From: a virus
Taxonomy: Duplodnaviria > Caudoviricetes
Virus record (IMG/VR): IMGVR_UViG_3300009873_000081
Coordinates: 39,995-103,994 of that record
Direction: 5' to 3' (one strand)
Length of the DNA stretch: 64,000 bases
This document shows, one piece after another, positions 4,019 to 13,622 of this stretch; positions within the stretch are counted from its first letter, which is position 1, and each line of letters opens with the position of its first letter. The notes beneath the pieces were generated by a model, which made no database searches, had not been told where the DNA came from, and saw only the letters and a list, made by a program, of their open reading frames with translations. The position numbers and the translations under genes are program-made.

Positions 4019-4163
4019 AACCTTTTGCCTTCGTTGGAGTTTTACCGCCCGCCAGCAATCCCATTAAACCGCGTTGTGCCGAAGTCAGAGGCTTGCCATG
4101 CACTGTGCCGTCTTTTAAGATTCGCTTGGCCTTATATCTTGATAGCAATTTCTTCTTTGGCAC
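3999..4163 (-). CDS. Small basic protein (54 aa)
   Basis: Not in the track. AAGGAG then GTG gives MPKKKLLSRYKAKRILKDGTVHGKPLTSAQRGLMGLLAGGKTPTKAKGYGKGKK; its start lies inside the 3' end of the LAGLIDADG gene. Confidence 0.6.
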   Translation of the reverse strand: MPKKKLLSRYKAKRILKDGTVHGKPLTSAQRGLMGLLAGGKTPTKAKGYGKGKK

Positions 4164-5256
4164 TTTTCATCTCCTTTAGTCTTTTTTCAAAGAAATTTCT
4201 CTTATACAACTCAAAGCTAGACGGTAACTTATTACCATTAGAAAATTTGCAGTACCTATAGAACTTAATAGCTAACTCAGCTTGCTCTTTTTTAACCGTC
4301 ATTTGGCTTACTATACGCTTGAGAAAATCAGCAGCTTTTATGCCATGTAAGCTCCAAACAAATGTATTTGCTAAACGATTAAAATATAACTTTCCGCCGT
4401 TCTGCTTAGTCAATTGAAACAAATGTTTTATAGCTTCAAACTCTCGCATTTGCACAGTAACAACAAGATTATGATAAACAACCGAATTATAGTATCGTTT
4501 TGTACCGTAAATACCTATACATCCTTCGCCATCTACAATACCTGCGAGATAGGCTGAATCCTGTGGCACAGACCAATCAACATTCGGCAGATCAGTACTA
4601 CTTTTGAAATTATTAGCAAGTTTCAATTCTTTTATTGTATTCTCAAATTGATCTCGCCTACTTAGATCGTCATTAGTCACTAAGCTATTACAACGATAGA
4701 AATAGCATTCTTGATAGAAACTTATAGCAAATTCAGCCTGCTTTTTCTTAACCTTTAGAAAAGGCAAAATTCTCCTAAGAAAAACAAAAGCTTTTAAACC
4801 ATAGATATGCCAGCCGTATAGCATCCCGTTTTTTACGATTTTATTTTTTTGCTTAGATTTTTTCGTTTGTGTTAAAAACGCCAGTTGATTCACAGCACCG
4901 CTATTTGTCATTGTAACAGATACAAGCAATTGATGATATGTGGACTTTCTTACACCGAATGGCTTCTTTTTATACACGCCTATAGTGCCCTCGCTATCAA
5001 CTATACCTGCGCAGTATGCAGCATCGCTATCTGACATAGCGAACTTACTTTCGATATTTTCAACTTGTTTGCTTCTTAACTCAATTTTCTTTCGAGGCCT
5101 GTTTCTTATTCTTGATGCCTTTTTATCTGCATCGCAGCATAATCTGCATCTTCCTGTTCTACCATCAGAGTTCCTCTTATCAGGATAAAACTCTGTAAAG
5201 TTTTTACTAATTTTACAAAAATTACAAACTTTTGACATAGGCATACAACTATTCAA
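4132..5256 (-). CDS. Double-motif LAGLIDADG homing endonuclease with N-terminal Cys-rich zinc-finger-like region
   Basis: AYCAGIVDSEGTIG and AYLAGIVDGEGCIG motifs, each followed by KKxQAE.AI.FY; AT-rich relative to flanks. Confidence 0.9.
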   Translation of the reverse strand: MNSCMPMSKVCNFCKISKNFTEFYPDKRNSDGRTGRCRLCCDADKKASRIRNRPRKKIELRSKQVENIESKFAMSDSDAAYCAGIVDSEGTIGVYKKKPFGVRKSTYHQLLVSVTMTNSGAVNQLAFLTQTKKSKQKNKIVKNGMLYGWHIYGLKAFVFLRRILPFLKVKKKQAEFAISFYQECYFYRCNSLVTNDDLSRRDQFENTIKELKLANNFKSSTDLPNVDWSVPQDSAYLAGIVDGEGCIGIYGTKRYYNSVVYHNLVVTVQMREFEAIKHLFQLTKQNGGKLYFNRLANTFVWSLHGIKAADFLKRIVSQMTVKKEQAELAIKFYRYCKFSNGNKLPSSFELYKRNFFEKRLKEMKSAKEEIAIKI

Positions 5257-5262
5257 TCCTTT

Positions 5263-5310
5263 TCACTTCCCAGCTTTTGCTTTGGATGGGTATTTTCTTT
5301 TCTTAGCCAT
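5263..5310 (-). pseudogene. Orphaned original 5' end of the small basic protein gene
   Basis: AAGGAG RBS then MAKKRKYPSKAKAGK*, similar to the N-terminus of the 3999-4163 ORF. Confidence 0.5.
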
Positions 5311-6814
5311 TTGAAATCTCCTTTGCTCGATTCAGTGTTTCGCCGATCATATCTTCAAAATTAAGCGGCACTGGCTCAAACAAGCTTTCCGGCGCTGCAA
5401 CCGCAGGGCTTAGATTGTAACCTGAATCTTTGGCGCGTTTTGGCCATCGTGCCATTACGTTGGATTCAAATTCCGGCTCAACCTTATACCATTTGCCCTG
5501 CCACTTTAGATCGAGCTTGGGATCAGGCGCTTGGGTTTCTGTAGCATACTCCGAAAGCATGTACTCGATCCAGGACAAGCGGACTGCATTTTCCACCTGC
5601 GGCGGGCTTTTTCTTTGTTCCAGCGCGATATTGGGATGGTCTAATGCACTGGCTTCGATAACATGGCTGCTCTTCTCGAATGCGGCAATGAATTGCGCCT
5701 CTTTTACCGGACGATAGAAAGCCACAAATTTAACGTTTTCTCCGGCCAACACACTTTCCGCTTTTTTCCAAAACGCTTCCGGTATATCGTGAGCACGGTC
5801 AAAAACAATCAGCAAATTAGTCTCGCGTTTCGGCTCGAAAAGTGTAATGTCTTTGGCAGTCAAACCCTGCGCATAGTGACTATAATTCATCTCCATGCGC
5901 GGCGCTTTGGGAGAGAGTCCAAAACGTTCTCCTCTTTGCATTCTAATCTCAGCCCAAAGCTTGTCCACAAGCAAATCTTCGGTCGGGGCCACTGCCAAAA
6001 CTACTGAAGGCACAAAGGCATCGAAGAACCAATTGATTAGAACAGCCGCAATAAAGCTTGCGCCTTGATATTGACTGCCACGAAACAAAATTCGGTTATT
6101 TTTGTTTTTGACTACTGACTGCAAAAGCTCGCTTTGCTTTAGCGTTGGCCTTCTTTTTAGAACATCTCGCATATATTTGAGCGGTAGATCACGATAGCTT
6201 TTATAATCCCGACCAGCCTCTAAAAAAGCGAAAAGCCTGAAGCGGCTTTCTGGCGGCAGGCTCTTGTCTTCAAGAAGATGCGCAGCTAAAATCCGGTAAG
6301 CTGCCTTTGCCTCTTCAGTCAACGGCAGATCAACATTTTTGATTTCCTCGAATCGGGCTTCTTCTGTTCCATCAGGTAACTCGTCTTCGTTAGCATCGTC
6401 ATCAAGCAAAGCTTCGGTACTGATACCAACGCTATCGTGGTTTGGCATTAGCAGTCCGGCAAGATAAGCTTTATGCTCTGCCGGCAACCCTTCTACCATC
6501 AACAAAAAGGCGTCTTCTTTTGACATCTCAGACTGCGGCAGACCATAAAATCGGTTGAGTAGAATGTTGGCAGCAGCTACGCATTGACGATTTTCGGTAT
6601 TAGTCGCAACGTCATAAAGCGCGTCAATGACTCGCTTCAAGCGCGACATTTTTGATTTATACCTGTGGTCGGGCCTCTGCATATAAGCCCGACCAAACTC
6701 TGCCAAGCCAAAACCAATTTTGGAGCTTTTGTTATCTCCCGGATACCATTTATTTAAAAAATGATCAGCCGTTTTTGGCGCGGTATAAATTTTACCTGTT
6801 TCATAGTCGCTCAT
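5303..6814 (-). CDS. TerS-like N-terminus fused to a degenerate terminase-type ATPase domain
   Basis: N-terminal helical AAANILLNRFYGLP segment; C-terminal PTLKQ, RGSQYQGASF (decayed Walker A), VAPT, LLIVFDRA (decayed Walker B), AFYRP. Confidence 0.6.
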   Translation of the reverse strand: MSDYETGKIYTAPKTADHFLNKWYPGDNKSSKIGFGLAEFGRAYMQRPDHRYKSKMSRLKRVIDALYDVATNTENRQCVAAANILLNRFYGLPQSEMSKEDAFLLMVEGLPAEHKAYLAGLLMPNHDSVGISTEALLDDDANEDELPDGTEEARFEEIKNVDLPLTEEAKAAYRILAAHLLEDKSLPPESRFRLFAFLEAGRDYKSYRDLPLKYMRDVLKRRPTLKQSELLQSVVKNKNNRILFRGSQYQGASFIAAVLINWFFDAFVPSVVLAVAPTEDLLVDKLWAEIRMQRGERFGLSPKAPRMEMNYSHYAQGLTAKDITLFEPKRETNLLIVFDRAHDIPEAFWKKAESVLAGENVKFVAFYRPVKEAQFIAAFEKSSHVIEASALDHPNIALEQRKSPPQVENAVRLSWIEYMLSEYATETQAPDPKLDLKWQGKWYKVEPEFESNVMARWPKRAKDSGYNLSPAVAAPESLFEPVPLNFEDMIGETLNRAKEISNG

Positions 6815-6882
6815 ATTACACAAAGATAAACAATTACTTGAACTCTGTCAAGTAAAATCTACACAACAGAGGAAAATGGCGA

Positions 6883-7161
6883 TTATTTTGTTCGCCGGAA
6901 GGCAGTTTGAGGGCAGTGTACAGGCGAAAATTTCGGGATGACTTCGGCAGGTCTGCTCCAGTCTGAAACGAGTCCGCCAATTTTGACTCGCGCTCGAACA
7001 TCACATGGAGCGCCGTAGAGCACGACAAAATTCTTTTCAGACTCAACAGTTTTGAAAACTTGTTTGCCTACGGATGTTAATTGCTCGACTTCAAATATTG
7101 CATTTTCAACATCTGATCCCAAAACCAAGACGGGGCTGTATTGGTCAAGGTCGTAAGAAAT
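6883..7161 (-). pseudogene. 3' part of a gene interrupted by the TnpB cassette (Fn3-like)
   Basis: ISYDLDQY...VRARVKIGGLVSDWSRPA...; has no start codon of its own but joins in frame to 8580-8681. Confidence 0.65.
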
Positions 7162-7183
7162 GTGCAGAAAAGTGATAAAAATA

Positions 7184-8431
7184 TTAACACTTGACTTTTT
7201 GCGCAGTCGGACAGACCAGCGCTGGGCGACACACACGCCCTCTATCGGCTATCGGTATCACCGAATCGCCGAATGCTTTCCTTGCTATGCCGATGGCTCC
7301 GTTAACATCGGCGTTGATTGTAAATCCAAGCGAGGACTGGAAAAGTCCGCGCTTGATTCGCTTGCCGAGATAGTTCTCGAAATGTTGCATCGGTTCTTTG
7401 GCAAAATGATCGATCTTGGAAGTGTAGCTTTCCTCGCTCTCCATGACTGTGATACCGTACTCACGCGCCTTGTAGGAAATCATTCCTGCCAAACGAGCAT
7501 GCGGTATTTGCACGAAGTTTTGATTGTTGGATGAACCAAGATTGCTTTCTTGCTTCCAAAATTGATTTCGACCAATGACGATTGTGCCAATGCGATTCTC
7601 TATACAAAAATTTATGATGAATCTGCTGGTCTTGTGCAGGTAATCATTGACTTTGTTGTTGCGTTTCGAGTTTATGCTTTTTATCCTGTGCGAGCTTTTG
7701 GTTTTGATTATGGATTGCAGACGCGCTTTTTCTTTGTTGAAAGACTGGTTGATCGACTTGAGCGGTCTTCCGTTGATCAACGAACTTTCGGAAACGTTTG
7801 AGAACATGGCGGCAAGATTGTTCACGCCAAGATCAAGCGATACAAAGTTTTTCGCATCAACTTCGGCAGATTTTATTTCATCATCATACACTATGTCAAA
7901 GACGAATTTCTGGCTTTGCAATGTAATGCGAACCTGCCGAAATTTATTAGGTTTGATCTTTGTCTTGATCGGCTTTATTTCCTTCAATCCAAACTTATCA
8001 AGTTTAGGAAACTTTATTACGCCACTTTTCACTTGTACCTGCTGGCAAGTAAAAATGACGGTTCCGGTTTTGTTCTCACGAAGATATTTCGGGATTGACG
8101 GTTTGGCCTTGAATGATGATTGATTTTTTTTAAACGCTCTCAACGCTGCAAACCACGATGTAAATGAGCGGCAAGCCTGGATAACTACTTGTTGTGCGGT
8201 CTGTGCTGGTAAGGTGCGATACAATTCATGATTCTCGGAGACGAAAAAATTGATAAAATCTATCGCAGTGAAAACCGGCTCACGCCAAAATACTTTTTGC
8301 CGTTGGACAAAAATCACCGTGTTGTATAAAGCTTTTGAACGATTGGCAAGCTCAAAAATATTTTTGTCAAACGGTCTAACATGTCGTTCGACTTTTGATA
8401 TGAGATTTTCAGGTTTGTTCTTTCGTTTCAT
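7184..8431 (-). CDS. tnpB: RNA-guided endonuclease TnpB (IS200/IS605-related clade without zinc finger)
   Basis: RuvC motifs SLDLGVNN, IVIGRNQFWKQ, EESYTS, NADVNGA; start placed at MKRK after the leader terminator. Confidence 0.92.
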   Translation of the reverse strand: MKRKNKPENLISKVERHVRPFDKNIFELANRSKALYNTVIFVQRQKVFWREPVFTAIDFINFFVSENHELYRTLPAQTAQQVVIQACRSFTSWFAALRAFKKNQSSFKAKPSIPKYLRENKTGTVIFTCQQVQVKSGVIKFPKLDKFGLKEIKPIKTKIKPNKFRQVRITLQSQKFVFDIVYDDEIKSAEVDAKNFVSLDLGVNNLAAMFSNVSESSLINGRPLKSINQSFNKEKARLQSIIKTKSSHRIKSINSKRNNKVNDYLHKTSRFIINFCIENRIGTIVIGRNQFWKQESNLGSSNNQNFVQIPHARLAGMISYKAREYGITVMESEESYTSKIDHFAKEPMQHFENYLGKRIKRGLFQSSLGFTINADVNGAIGIARKAFGDSVIPIADRGRVCRPALVCPTAQKVKC

Positions 8432-8432
8432 G

Positions 8433-8550
8433 AAATAAAAAACCCTTGCAAGGTGCCATCGTGATTCACCGAAACGGTGGATTACGAAACCCGCAAGGGT
8501 CATTCGGTAAATCATGATGGCACTTTAAAAATATAAAATTTTTATGTCAA
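8433..8550 (-). promoter_or_regulatory. Promoter plus attenuator-like leader of tnpB
   Basis: TTGACA-17-TAAAGT; a long 5' stem competes with an ACCCTTGC/GCAAGGGT-polyT terminator. Confidence 0.6.
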
Positions 8551-8579
8551 AAGCAAACACTTTTATCAAATTTATGCAC

Positions 8580-8681
8580 TACAATCGTTTCGGGTGGGTT
8601 AAGATCAGTGCGGTTGCTTTCGAGAATTACAAGTGGGACGTGGGCAGCCAGAGTAAAGAGGAAGATAAAGAACTTGTCCAT
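8580..8681 (-). pseudogene. 5' part of the TnpB-interrupted gene
   Basis: AGGAG upstream; MDKFFIFLFTLAAHVPLVILESNRTDLNPPETIV with a hydrophobic signal-like start. Confidence 0.6.
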
Positions 8682-8780
8682 AAGTTGCTAAACGCTCCTA
8701 AAGTTGTATTATACAGTTCGTTTACCTCCCTCGATAGTCTTTAGGAGCAACTTCAGTGCCTAACGCCGTGCTGCTCAAGA

Positions 8781-8975
8781 TTAATCAGTTAATTCGTGCA
8801 AATCTGGTATTTTTTCCAAGCCTTTTTCAAGTTCCAATCTGACAATTTTATGCCCCATCAGCTTTAGAATGATCGCATCTGTTAACTTCAATTTGCCGAC
8901 ATAATACGAGGTTTTACCAACGTGAACAAACCCGCCTTCGACTAATTTTTGTTTTACACTTTCTTCTTCAGACAT
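8781..8975 (-). CDS. Hypothetical protein
   Basis: ORF overlapping the upstream gene. Confidence 0.5.
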   Translation of the reverse strand: MSEEESVKQKLVEGGFVHVGKTSYYVGKLKLTDAIILKLMGHKIVRLELEKGLEKIPDLHELTD

Positions 8976-9511
8976 AGCAAAATCGTGCGGTTAAAGTGAA
9001 TATAGCGCAGCAGCGGCCTTATACCTTTAAAACACCAATACCAGGGTACTGGGTTTATTCGGGTTTTAGCCTCGACTACAAAATTGGCTTTGTCGATCAA
9101 AGCCATTAACTCGTCTTCAGCAAATTCGTGAAAGTGACGAGGGCCACGTAGAAACCTCGGACGATCAATTGGCGTCGAGATAAACAATCTACCATTATTG
9201 GCAAGCAACTGACAAGCAGATTCCAGACAAACCAAAGGATTCATCGGGTGTTCGATGACCTCAAAGCAAAAAACATAATCAAACTTTCTGTCCAACGAAA
9301 ACTTGTAGTCGAGATCAAAATGGGTATTCTCAATAGAAAATCCTAACAAAGACTCCAACGATTCGGTGAGCTTGGTGCGATCACCCAAATCGAGAGCACT
9401 GCTACCTTCAAATGAAAAATTTTTTAACCATTGCAAAGTCAGCTTCCAGCGTTTTTCTACATCTTGCCTTAAGCCATACTCTTCATCAACACTATGCTTT
9501 AGATCGAGCAT
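8954..9511 (-). CDS. Class I SAM-dependent methyltransferase
   Basis: ALDLG, FDYVFCFEVIEH, GRLFISTP. Confidence 0.85.
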   Translation of the reverse strand: MLDLKHSVDEEYGLRQDVEKRWKLTLQWLKNFSFEGSSALDLGDRTKLTESLESLLGFSIENTHFDLDYKFSLDRKFDYVFCFEVIEHPMNPLVCLESACQLLANNGRLFISTPIDRPRFLRGPRHFHEFAEDELMALIDKANFVVEAKTRINPVPWYWCFKGIRPLLRYIHFNRTILLCLKKKV

Positions 9512-12419: not shown

Positions 12420-12560
12420 CTCGTTACCTTTTAGCTGCCGGTGTATCGGCACCTGAAGTCTACACTTCAGTTCTTGCTTCTACGAGGGTTCTTACCGACA
12501 CTCACTCTCTGCAAGCGTTTAGGCTTTCGCCAAGTTCCGGTGTAACTCACCGTACTTCTT
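12420..12560 (-). ncRNA. Putative omega-RNA/right-end region of the second tnpB
   Basis: ACGCTTGCAGAGAG...GAAGCAAGAA overlapping the stop codon, followed by two hairpins, as is usual at tnpB 3' ends. Confidence 0.55.
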
Positions 12561-13622
12561 TAAGTTTAGAGCGGCATTCAAATCACGATCAATGGATAAA
12601 CCGCAATCGCAGGTGTAATTTCTATCCGAAAGAGTTAAATCTTCTTTAATTGAACCGCATTTTGAGCAAAGCTTACTTGATGGAAAAAATCTATCAGCCA
12701 CAATAACCTGCTTATTACGCCATTTGGCTTTGTATTCGACCTGCCGACGAATCTCACCAAATCCTATATCGTGAATAGCTCGCGCAAGTTTTTCATTTTT
12801 CAACATTCCTCGGACATTCAAGTTCTCAAGTACAATTGTGGAAAAATTACCTGTTATATAGTCTGATAGCCTGTGTGCAAAATCTCTTCGAGTGTTAGCT
12901 ATTCGCCAGTGCAAAACAGATAAACGTCCTGCTGATTTTATCTGGTTGTTACTACCTTTGGTTTTCTTAGAGTGTTGCCGTTGACGCTTTCTAAGTAATC
13001 GCAACTTCTTACCCAAAGGTCTAGGATTATCAAAAAATTTTCCACTTGATAATACAGCAGCATGCCTTAAGCCAAGATCAACACCAATAACTGCTTGGTT
13101 CTCACAAATTGTTGGTTTGATCTCGGTTTCAAGACATATTGCTACAAACCATCGTCTGCCTTCATAACTTACTGTAGTTGAAAGCAGTCTTCCGCTCCGT
13201 CGCATTGGTTTTGCCATTTTTACGAAACCAATTTTTGACAATCTAATCTTGGTGTCTTTAATATAGAAAGTTCCAGGGCCGTTATCAATTCTTGCTGATT
13301 GTTTTCCTGTTTTCTTTTTAAATCGAGGGTATTTGCCCAATCCCTTAAAAAACCTATCAAAGGCAACACCCAAATTTAAGATTGCCTCTTGCACAACACG
13401 TTTTGGTGATTCATACATCCACGGAAAGTACTCACCTTTGATCTCGTTAAGACCTTTGTTAAGCATTTTGACATTTGGCTTTTGACCGTCTCTACGAAGT
13501 GTTTGCCACATTTCTAAAGCCCAATTATAAGCAAAACGAGATGCTCCAACAGCTTGTTTAAGCTTTTCTTCTTGAAAGACGGTTGGATAAATACGAATCT
13601 TCTCTGCTGCATGAGTTTTCAT
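12519..13622 (-). CDS. tnpB: RNA-guided endonuclease TnpB (OrfB type with HTH and zinc ribbon)
   Basis: KIRIYPT...RFAYNWAL, GVDLG, IVLENLNV, PSSKLCSKCG...CDCG..IDRDLNAA. Confidence 0.95.
   Translation of the reverse strand: MKTHAAEKIRIYPTVFQEEKLKQAVGASRFAYNWALEMWQTLRRDGQKPNVKMLNKGLNEIKGEYFPWMYESPKRVVQEAILNLGVAFDRFFKGLGKYPRFKKKTGKQSARIDNGPGTFYIKDTKIRLSKIGFVKMAKPMRRSGRLLSTTVSYEGRRWFVAICLETEIKPTICENQAVIGVDLGLRHAAVLSSGKFFDNPRPLGKKLRLLRKRQRQHSKKTKGSNNQIKSAGRLSVLHWRIANTRRDFAHRLSDYITGNFSTIVLENLNVRGMLKNEKLARAIHDIGFGEIRRQVEYKAKWRNKQVIVADRFFPSSKLCSKCGSIKEDLTLSDRNYTCDCGLSIDRDLNAALNLKKYGELHRNLAKA

Follow-up and report, generated by a model that had tools for sequence, protein, structure and literature searches.

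Insertion sequences of the IS607 family, among them Helicobacter pylori IS607, IS1535, ISC1926 and ISXfa1, combine a serine transposase (TnpA) with TnpB. IS607 elements generate no target duplication and carry imperfect inverted repeats near their ends together with phased subterminal repeats (PMC6188088), and both the IS607 right-end element RNA (reRNA) and the Ealt group of TnpB proteins have been described (PMC10711439). Here we compare with these systems a tnpB-bearing element that splits a small gene of a phage of the Caudoviricetes. The element lies in a 64,000-nucleotide stretch of DNA (the window, to which all coordinates refer), which is part of a 104-kb IMG/VR virus record (IMGVR_UViG_3300009873_000081; 79% complete) that holds a single copy of it. 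We assign it, with a probability of roughly 0.7, to the IS607 family as a non-autonomous, tnpA-less insertion sequence moved in trans by a serine TnpA, because its TnpB lineage, its end terminus and its footprint agree. A known family thus accounts for what at first looks like a novel element, which is neither a new kind of element nor an RNA intron.

As in the IS607 family, the window element shows no target duplication, has an imperfect inverted repeat near its ends and, to judge by eye, short phased repeats within them, belongs to a clade that includes elements with a helix-turn-helix (HTH) and Resolvase TnpA directly upstream, and has a predicted guide-RNA scaffold at the tnpB 3' end that runs over the right end. 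By comparison with the family, it lacks tnpA, its inverted repeat is long (34 nt) and lies 1-2 nt from the termini, and it is phage-borne, splitting a phage gene. It also differs from IS607 and ISC1926, in which an identical GG dinucleotide is found at the ends and in the target, whereas the window element has T preceded by G on the left and by A on the right.

The boundaries of the element were established from an empty allele. A protein search with the C-terminal half of the split open reading frame (ORF) found one relative, the uninterrupted homologue P0001 (124 amino acids; 89% identity over the whole query), which is encoded without interruption at L002:184-558, on a phage contig of 33.8 kb that also carries portal and capsid genes. 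The element ends were taken from the alignment of this allele to both junctions, independently of the inverted repeat. On the tnpB strand, with a caret marking the junction, the empty allele reads ...AAACAATTGT^TTCTTACGAT..., the filled left junction ...ACGATTGT^AGTGCAT... and the filled right junction ...CTGCACAT^TTCTTACGAC.... The insert can be placed at 7160-8580 or, since a single T can be assigned to either side of the junction, at 7161-8581. No base is duplicated, and this T is all that the two junctions have in common; the insertion leaves no footprint, and the two alleles form a clean filled/empty pair. An earlier reading of the letters alone (the first-pass annotation) had seen no clear target duplication, which the empty allele bears out, and had proposed looking for an uninterrupted allele in related phages, which P0001 on L002 now supplies. 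The insertion that it delimited at 7162-8579 is real, with limits that fall 1-2 nt short on each side. The element and the genes concerned are as follows.

7160 to 8580 (equally 7161 to 8581), minus strand: whole inserted element, 1,421 bp, both junctions aligned to L002:184-558.
8581 to 8681, minus strand: 5' portion of the split phage gene, 33 codons and two bases, with a hydrophobic N-terminus.
6883 to 7159, minus strand: 3' portion of the split phage gene, one base and 91 codons, then a stop codon.
7184 to 8431, minus strand: tnpB, 415 amino acids, ATG at 8431-8429 and stop codon at 7186-7184.

The tnpB gene and the split phage ORF share the same orientation, and the insertion would have entered the small phage gene at codon 34. 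As it stands, the 5' part reads into the left end of the element and stops at 8547. Joined at the natural limits, the two parts give an ORF of 125 amino acids whose alignment to P0001 is ungapped across the joint. The joined ORF of 126 amino acids proposed earlier (...ETIV-I-SYDL...) is likewise in frame, with one Ile more than the natural allele, and the statement that both halves are free of stops holds. Between the filled and empty alleles the synonymous divergence (dS) is 0.59 and the ratio of nonsynonymous to synonymous divergence (dN/dS) is 0.13. From these values the split gene has evolved under constraint, and its intact halves fit a recent insertion and, equally, continued function. 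The gene belongs to no family in PHROGs or Pfam, and the AlphaFold model of P0001, with a mean predicted local distance difference test (pLDDT) score of 42.7, shows only an N-terminal helix followed by strands and is too low for a fold call; it gives no backing to the Fn3-like end noted in the first-pass annotation. A GenBank phage blastn with 6700-8900 returned no match, and single-protein locus searches of IMG/VR with the split gene and with TnpB found nothing. One sequencing run, from an activated-sludge sample that is possibly the source, carries the locus in the form of contigs, and no RNA run is listed for it; joined, excised junctions were not seen in these contigs, a result that gives no evidence on expression or excision.

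The tnpB gene, recognized as such in the first-pass annotation, is confirmed by Pfam matches to OrfB_IS605 (3.9e-22) and Cas12f1-like_TNB (4.3e-10). An identical 415-amino acid protein is present in the database (P0003), and thousands of homologues occur at 43-49% identity, more than 500 of them in IMG/VR phage contigs. The clade is thus large, and most of its members are carried by phages. The catalytic site was read from an alignment of 26 homologues (A2). The RuvC-I Asp (D201; SxDLG, SLDLG in the window) and the RuvC-III Asp (D376; NADVNGA) are invariant. The canonical RuvC-II Glu position is occupied by an invariant Gly (IIGxNKxWKQ; IVIGRNQFWKQ in the window), and an alternative Glu (E334/E335 in EESYTSKID) is nearly invariant and precedes by six residues the site at which the first zinc-finger Cys has been lost. 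All four zinc-finger Cys are lost in the clade, the first position being Asp. The relocated-Glu arrangement has been defined as Ealt (PMC10711439) and as RIIr (PMC10691335), and TnpB clades with a Glu-to-Gly rearranged RuvC-II were judged active (PMC10691335). The window clade resembles the Ealt/RIIr TnpBs (PMC10691335; the Ealt + D-Phi-G clade, PMC10711439) in the Gly replacing the RuvC-II Glu, the conserved Glu located six residues ahead of the zinc-finger site, the NADxN of RuvC-III and the DLG of RuvC-I, and is unlike them in that it also lacks all four zinc-finger cysteines. Placement of the window clade onto a named branch of the published tree did not succeed. Judged from the alignment, the window TnpB keeps a rearranged but complete catalytic set and may be an active nuclease.

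The autonomous relatives of this TnpB link the clade to serine transposases. A scan of bacterial and archaeal genomes provided the decisive case: in Helicobacter mehlei (L277:715-1332), a 205-amino acid ORF that overlaps a tnpB of the window clade contains the Pfam domains HTH_17 and Resolvase, the architecture of IS607 TnpA. A tblastn search with this protein revealed complete serine TnpA genes immediately 5' of tnpB in no fewer than 13 relatives, as well as several truncated remnants. The TnpA-bearing relatives include L267-L270, the best genome matches of the window (46-48% identity), the phage loci L020 and L029, and H. pylori contigs of 2.0-2.6 kb (TnpB 41% identity), of which we infer that those of about 2 kb are IS607 itself. 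In a quick maximum-likelihood tree the window TnpB, on a long branch, is sister to the L268/L269 group (Shimodaira-Hasegawa-like approximate likelihood ratio test 94), which mixes TnpA-bearing, remnant-bearing and solo elements; in addition, the TnpBs of solo L019 and TnpA-bearing L029 are almost identical. Solo and TnpA-bearing members are intermixed, and thus solo cassettes arise repeatedly from autonomous IS607-type elements. In the window, tnpB is the only gene between the element ends, and the absence of tnpA makes the element non-autonomous. In the mechanism we propose, tnpB and its guide-RNA scaffold, held between two ends, would have been inserted as double-stranded DNA in the manner of IS607 serine transposases, whose conservative exchange leaves no footprint (PMC6188088; PMC10711439). 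The exchange site would have ended in T, as GT in the target and as AT in the right end of the element, and the recombinase presumably came in trans from the host or from a co-infecting element. The first-pass annotation had suggested a new TnpB element mobilised by a recombinase in trans; the recombinase in trans is essentially right, as the autonomous members of the clade have a serine TnpA, and the element is not of a new kind. Its premise, that IS200/IS605 elements lack terminal inverted repeats and need TnpA, had set the cassette against IS200/IS605 only and omitted IS607.

The right-end terminus is shared with relatives of the clade and sits 20-45 nt past the tnpB stop codon. It reads GCACAT^ in the window, TAACAT^ in the related phage element L096, TAACGT^ or TAACAT^ in a large phage subfamily, and, among the TnpA-bearing elements, TATAACGT^ in L268/L269 (with five different flanks in the group), AATAACGT^ in L267 and TAACGT^ in L029. 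The left flanks of the relatives end in T, mostly after A or G. A second set of empty sites shows the same footprint: the L047 site reads AATAT^GCAAAC in 70 empty alleles of other phage genomes (L197-L266) and AATAT^AGTTGAAT...TAACGT^GCAAAC when filled, with no duplication and one shared T. A corresponding empty-site pattern search for L096 gave no match. At the window junctions the dinucleotides are GT on the left and AT on the right, with one T in common and no GG; L269 has GT at both junctions, and L096 probably has AT at both. Neither a GG crossover nor an IS630-like TA duplication fits the window junctions, and both were rejected.

Insertions of the L006-L085 subfamily (right end ...TAACGT^, as in L047:2404-3745) show a further regularity. 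In 24 of 37 distinct insertions the element-final GT and the flanking G create an in-frame GTG for a downstream ORF of at least 60 codons, as compared with 3/74 in control frames. The GTG is formed at the junction and the empty L047 alleles carry ATG where the filled sites have GTG; therefore these elements sit inside start codons, changing ATG to GTG. Among the L047-site empty alleles (L197-L266), 57/70 read AATTATCGTGCAAAC, not AATATGCAAAC; the CGTG that they keep, like that of the element right-end junction, may represent excision footprints or an older allele. To judge by eye, two relatives (L274:~2330-2420 and L029:~1785-1810) seem to follow immediately on the 3' end of a tRNA gene (…GGTTCGA…CCA).

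The two ends of the window element are further marked by long inverted arms, and the left end carries additional features.

8546 to 8579, minus strand: left-end inverted-repeat arm (GTGCATAAATTTGATAAAAGTG...), beginning 1-2 nt inside the element end.
7162 to 7195, minus strand: right-end inverted-repeat arm, overlapping the tnpB stop codon.
8450 to 8526, minus strand: left-end hairpin, its 24-nt arms 88% complementary; CCTTGCAAGG and a run of T come next, immediately ahead of the tnpB ATG.
8522 to 8550, minus strand: sigma-70-like promoter match TTGACA-17-TAAAGT, inside the left end and facing tnpB, a consensus match only.
8581 to 8585, minus strand: left flank ATTGT, candidate target or transposon-associated motif (TAM) position, of which only the final T is shared with relatives.

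The inverted repeat reported earlier, 34 nt with 25/34 (74%) complementary positions, withstands scrutiny. It is the longest inverted repeat in 6800-8800, its 25 matches were reached by only 1 of 200,000 shuffles that preserved the composition of the two terminal 40-mers (with ends taken from the empty allele), and across both strands of the whole window the right-end arm is the only other 34-mer with at least 22 matches to the left-end arm. By eye, the arms are built of phased units of about 10 nt resembling GTGNNNAAAA (for example GTGCAGAAAA GTGATAAAAA), which recall the TnpA motifs of IS1535 with their helical phasing. At its left end, L096, an element of another phage whose TnpB is 46% identical to that of the window, begins TAGTGCAGAAAAGTGATAAAAATATTAA. 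This start is identical over 27/27 nt to the reverse complement of the window right-end arm and also close to the window left-end arm, so that the same motif opens both left ends. Between elements the arms are conserved in sequence and do not covary. To judge from these patterns, the 34-nt arms are most likely inverted sets of phased TnpA-binding repeats and not an RNA stem.

A generic scan of left-end/right-end complementarity in 78 relatives gave 9.8 for cognate and 9.5 for non-cognate pairs; therefore long terminal complementarity is no clade-wide rule. A degenerate 20-mer of the arm had 10 matches in IMG/VR, where only L087 (the same locus as L096) adjoins a tnpB, and 97 in metagenome contigs, with no tnpB near any locus fetched. 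Of other tnpB loci with the same ends, which the first-pass annotation had suggested seeking, L096 is the one obtained. A further element of the same sample, of about 1.3 kb with a diverged interior, lies on a 2,149-bp contig (activated-sludge run X1, contig record 2); only its ends resemble 8528-8581 and 7167-7197 of the window, and its flanks differ (left flank ...TTCATCA^T). As compared with the L096 left end, the left-end hairpin at 8450-8526 is an insertion of about 80 nt and is unique in the window; on this comparison, it is not a core part of the element and not a Y1-type end structure.

Several observations weigh against the IS607 assignment. The position of the window TnpB comes from a quick tree, in which it sits on a long branch, and no serine TnpA is encoded in the phage record, which at 79% completeness contains neither a Resolvase nor a Y1 transposase gene. 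The sole empty allele for the window site belongs to a diverged phage (dS 0.59, as above). IS607 proper ends in and targets GG, whereas the window has a single shared T between unlike junction dinucleotides, and for GT and AT to be compatible with a 2-bp crossover, the exchange would have to tolerate unlike bases at the first position. Furthermore, the nearest autonomous relatives (L268/L269) have no comparable long terminal inverted repeat, and the arm searches of IMG/VR and metagenome contigs found no autonomous element with these particular ends.

These points have to be set beside what other modes of mobility would require, and when compared with the respective families the window element falls outside IS200/IS605, the IStrons and the DDE carriers alike. 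A solo tnpB of the IS200/IS605 type (IS1341-like), moved as single-stranded DNA by a Y1 HUH TnpA cleaving 3' of a short motif ending in T, would account for the absence of a target duplication, for the (A/G)T with which left flank and right end both finish and for the strong hairpin in the left end, and solo tnpB elements are common in that family (PMC10691335). The window element also resembles the IS1341 group and ISDra2 TnpB homing in being tnpB-only, in lacking a duplication, in the right-flank guide and in the predicted cutting of empty sites. Nevertheless, we regard this origin as unlikely: the autonomous clade members carry a serine TnpA, Y1_Tnp is absent from the ten neighbour ORFs of solo relatives and from the phage record, the hairpin is an insertion missing from L096 with no matching hairpin at the right end, and the left flanks share no 4-5-nt target motif. 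Unlike IS200/IS605, the window clade has no Y1 partner and no conserved subterminal hairpins. Capture of a TnpB module by a DDE cut-and-paste transposon, within whose terminal inverted repeats it would again be moved in trans, would explain the 34-nt repeat, which is real; DDE-associated TnpBs with inverted ends around a solo tnpB are published (DDE-1 to DDE-6, PMC10691335), and a sister phage subfamily with GGCA...TGCC ends has 8-bp duplications. By comparison, the window element has none, one T only being shared at its junctions as at the L047 site, and its right-end terminus matches that of serine-TnpA elements, which makes a DDE carrier very unlikely; inverted ends alone do not identify a new TnpB carrier.

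Two further explanations dispense with a transposase. TnpB cutting of empty alleles, followed by recombination between co-infecting phages, could be the only current mobility of the cassette, and the 19/20 match of the predicted guide to the empty allele, the lack of a transposase in the phage record and the published concept of non-restorative homing (PMC13565253) speak for it. Such a pure homing cassette cannot explain arrival at new sites, whereas near-identical cassettes of the relatives occur at many flanks with sharp and conserved ends and a related element is found elsewhere in the same sample; we consider it quite unlikely. In the RNA-level element proposed by the first-pass annotation as an IStron-like case, the arm stem of read-through transcripts would permit splicing, processing or ribosomal bypass, and the host protein would still be made. 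The coding-strand RNA could form 25 Watson-Crick and 4 G-U pairs, the two halves of the gene have remained intact (dN/dS 0.13 against the empty allele), and, as in CdISt1 and the IS607-type IStrons, a tnpB-bearing insertion lies within a gene in the orientation of that gene. A low dN/dS is, however, expected anyway after a recent insertion. Unlike in IStrons, no group I intron core is detectable: an Rfam scan of 6000-9500 on both strands (cmscan, E<=1) found no group I or II intron and no match of any kind, and thus no known omega-RNA family either. In addition, the arms are conserved in sequence between elements without covarying, the promoter-like site within the element is located downstream of the left-end arm, and the insertion has an empty allele at the DNA level. 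Relatives occupy intergenic sites, gene ends and start codons, where in-frame excision is not needed; L096 replaces the last three codons of a gene, and in another subfamily the position of many relatives coincides exactly with a start codon. The proposal finds no support, and we give it almost no credence. Only marginally more credible, and still highly improbable, is that arms pairing at 29/34 positions (with G-U) in read-through transcripts lead to processing that excises the tnpB/guide-RNA unit, or even rejoins the message, without a ribozyme core.

For the preferred reading, a tnpA-less IS607-family element, the guide and its target can be predicted from the junctions.

7160 to 7340, minus strand: predicted guide-RNA (omega RNA or reRNA) scaffold, comprising the tnpB 3' end and the right end; 5' limit approximate.
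7140 to 7159, minus strand: predicted guide TTCTTACGACCTTGACCAAT, host sequence just 3' of the right end, assigned by analogy with TnpB biology (PMC10711439).

Two stems in the scaffold, 7268-7272/7245-7249 and 7236-7240/7224-7228, are kept in 22-25 of 25 non-redundant relatives, and most of their pairs show several compensatory pair types across these sequences. Consistent with this conservation, both stems are included in the predicted fold of the window's own RNA. The predicted guide is identical at 19/20 positions to the empty allele in L002, where it lies next to ...ATTGT, and the predicted target reads TTCTTACGA(C/T)CTTGACCAAT. By analogy with described systems, TnpB probably loads an RNA made of its own 3' end and about 20 nt of flanking phage DNA. 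So guided, it would cleave this gene in co-infecting phages that lack the insertion, and repair of the cut empty allele would copy the element in (RNA-guided homing), a process related to the non-restorative homing discussed as a concept (PMC13565253). For a phage-borne TnpB element of IS607 type that lacks its transposase, the locus offers a filled and an empty allele from nature, with junctions that are exact and with guide and target both predicted. This makes RNA-guided homing between co-infecting phages directly testable for a TnpB clade with a relocated Glu and no zinc finger.

The same TnpB clade includes a sister subfamily (L009, L011, L042, L045, L056, L059, L060 and L062) with short GGCAC/GTGCC inverted ends. 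Perfect 8-bp target duplications flank L011, L045 and L062, and every flanking 8-mer starts with AT. The ...GTGCCAT ends of this subfamily (subfamily B) were considered as the same end type as that of the window and rejected, as the 8-bp duplications show that AT belongs to the target. By their sequence, the GGCA...TGCC termini are DDE-type ends on the same nuclease lineage. The same phage TnpB clade therefore rides on at least two end types, an IS607-like one without duplication and a DDE-like one with 8-bp duplications.

The surrounding region is rich in selfish nucleases. An HNH endonuclease gene lies at 4132-5256, and a second solo tnpB (12519-13622, minus strand; 367 amino acids, HTH_OrfB_IS605), which looks unrelated to the first, adjoins an Acb2/Tad1-like gene and a gene with a T5orf172 domain. 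Compared with the window, the Logan contig of the same sample is 17 bases longer at position 6337, within ORF 5303-6823, which probably explains its split of this ORF into 162 and 347 amino acids.

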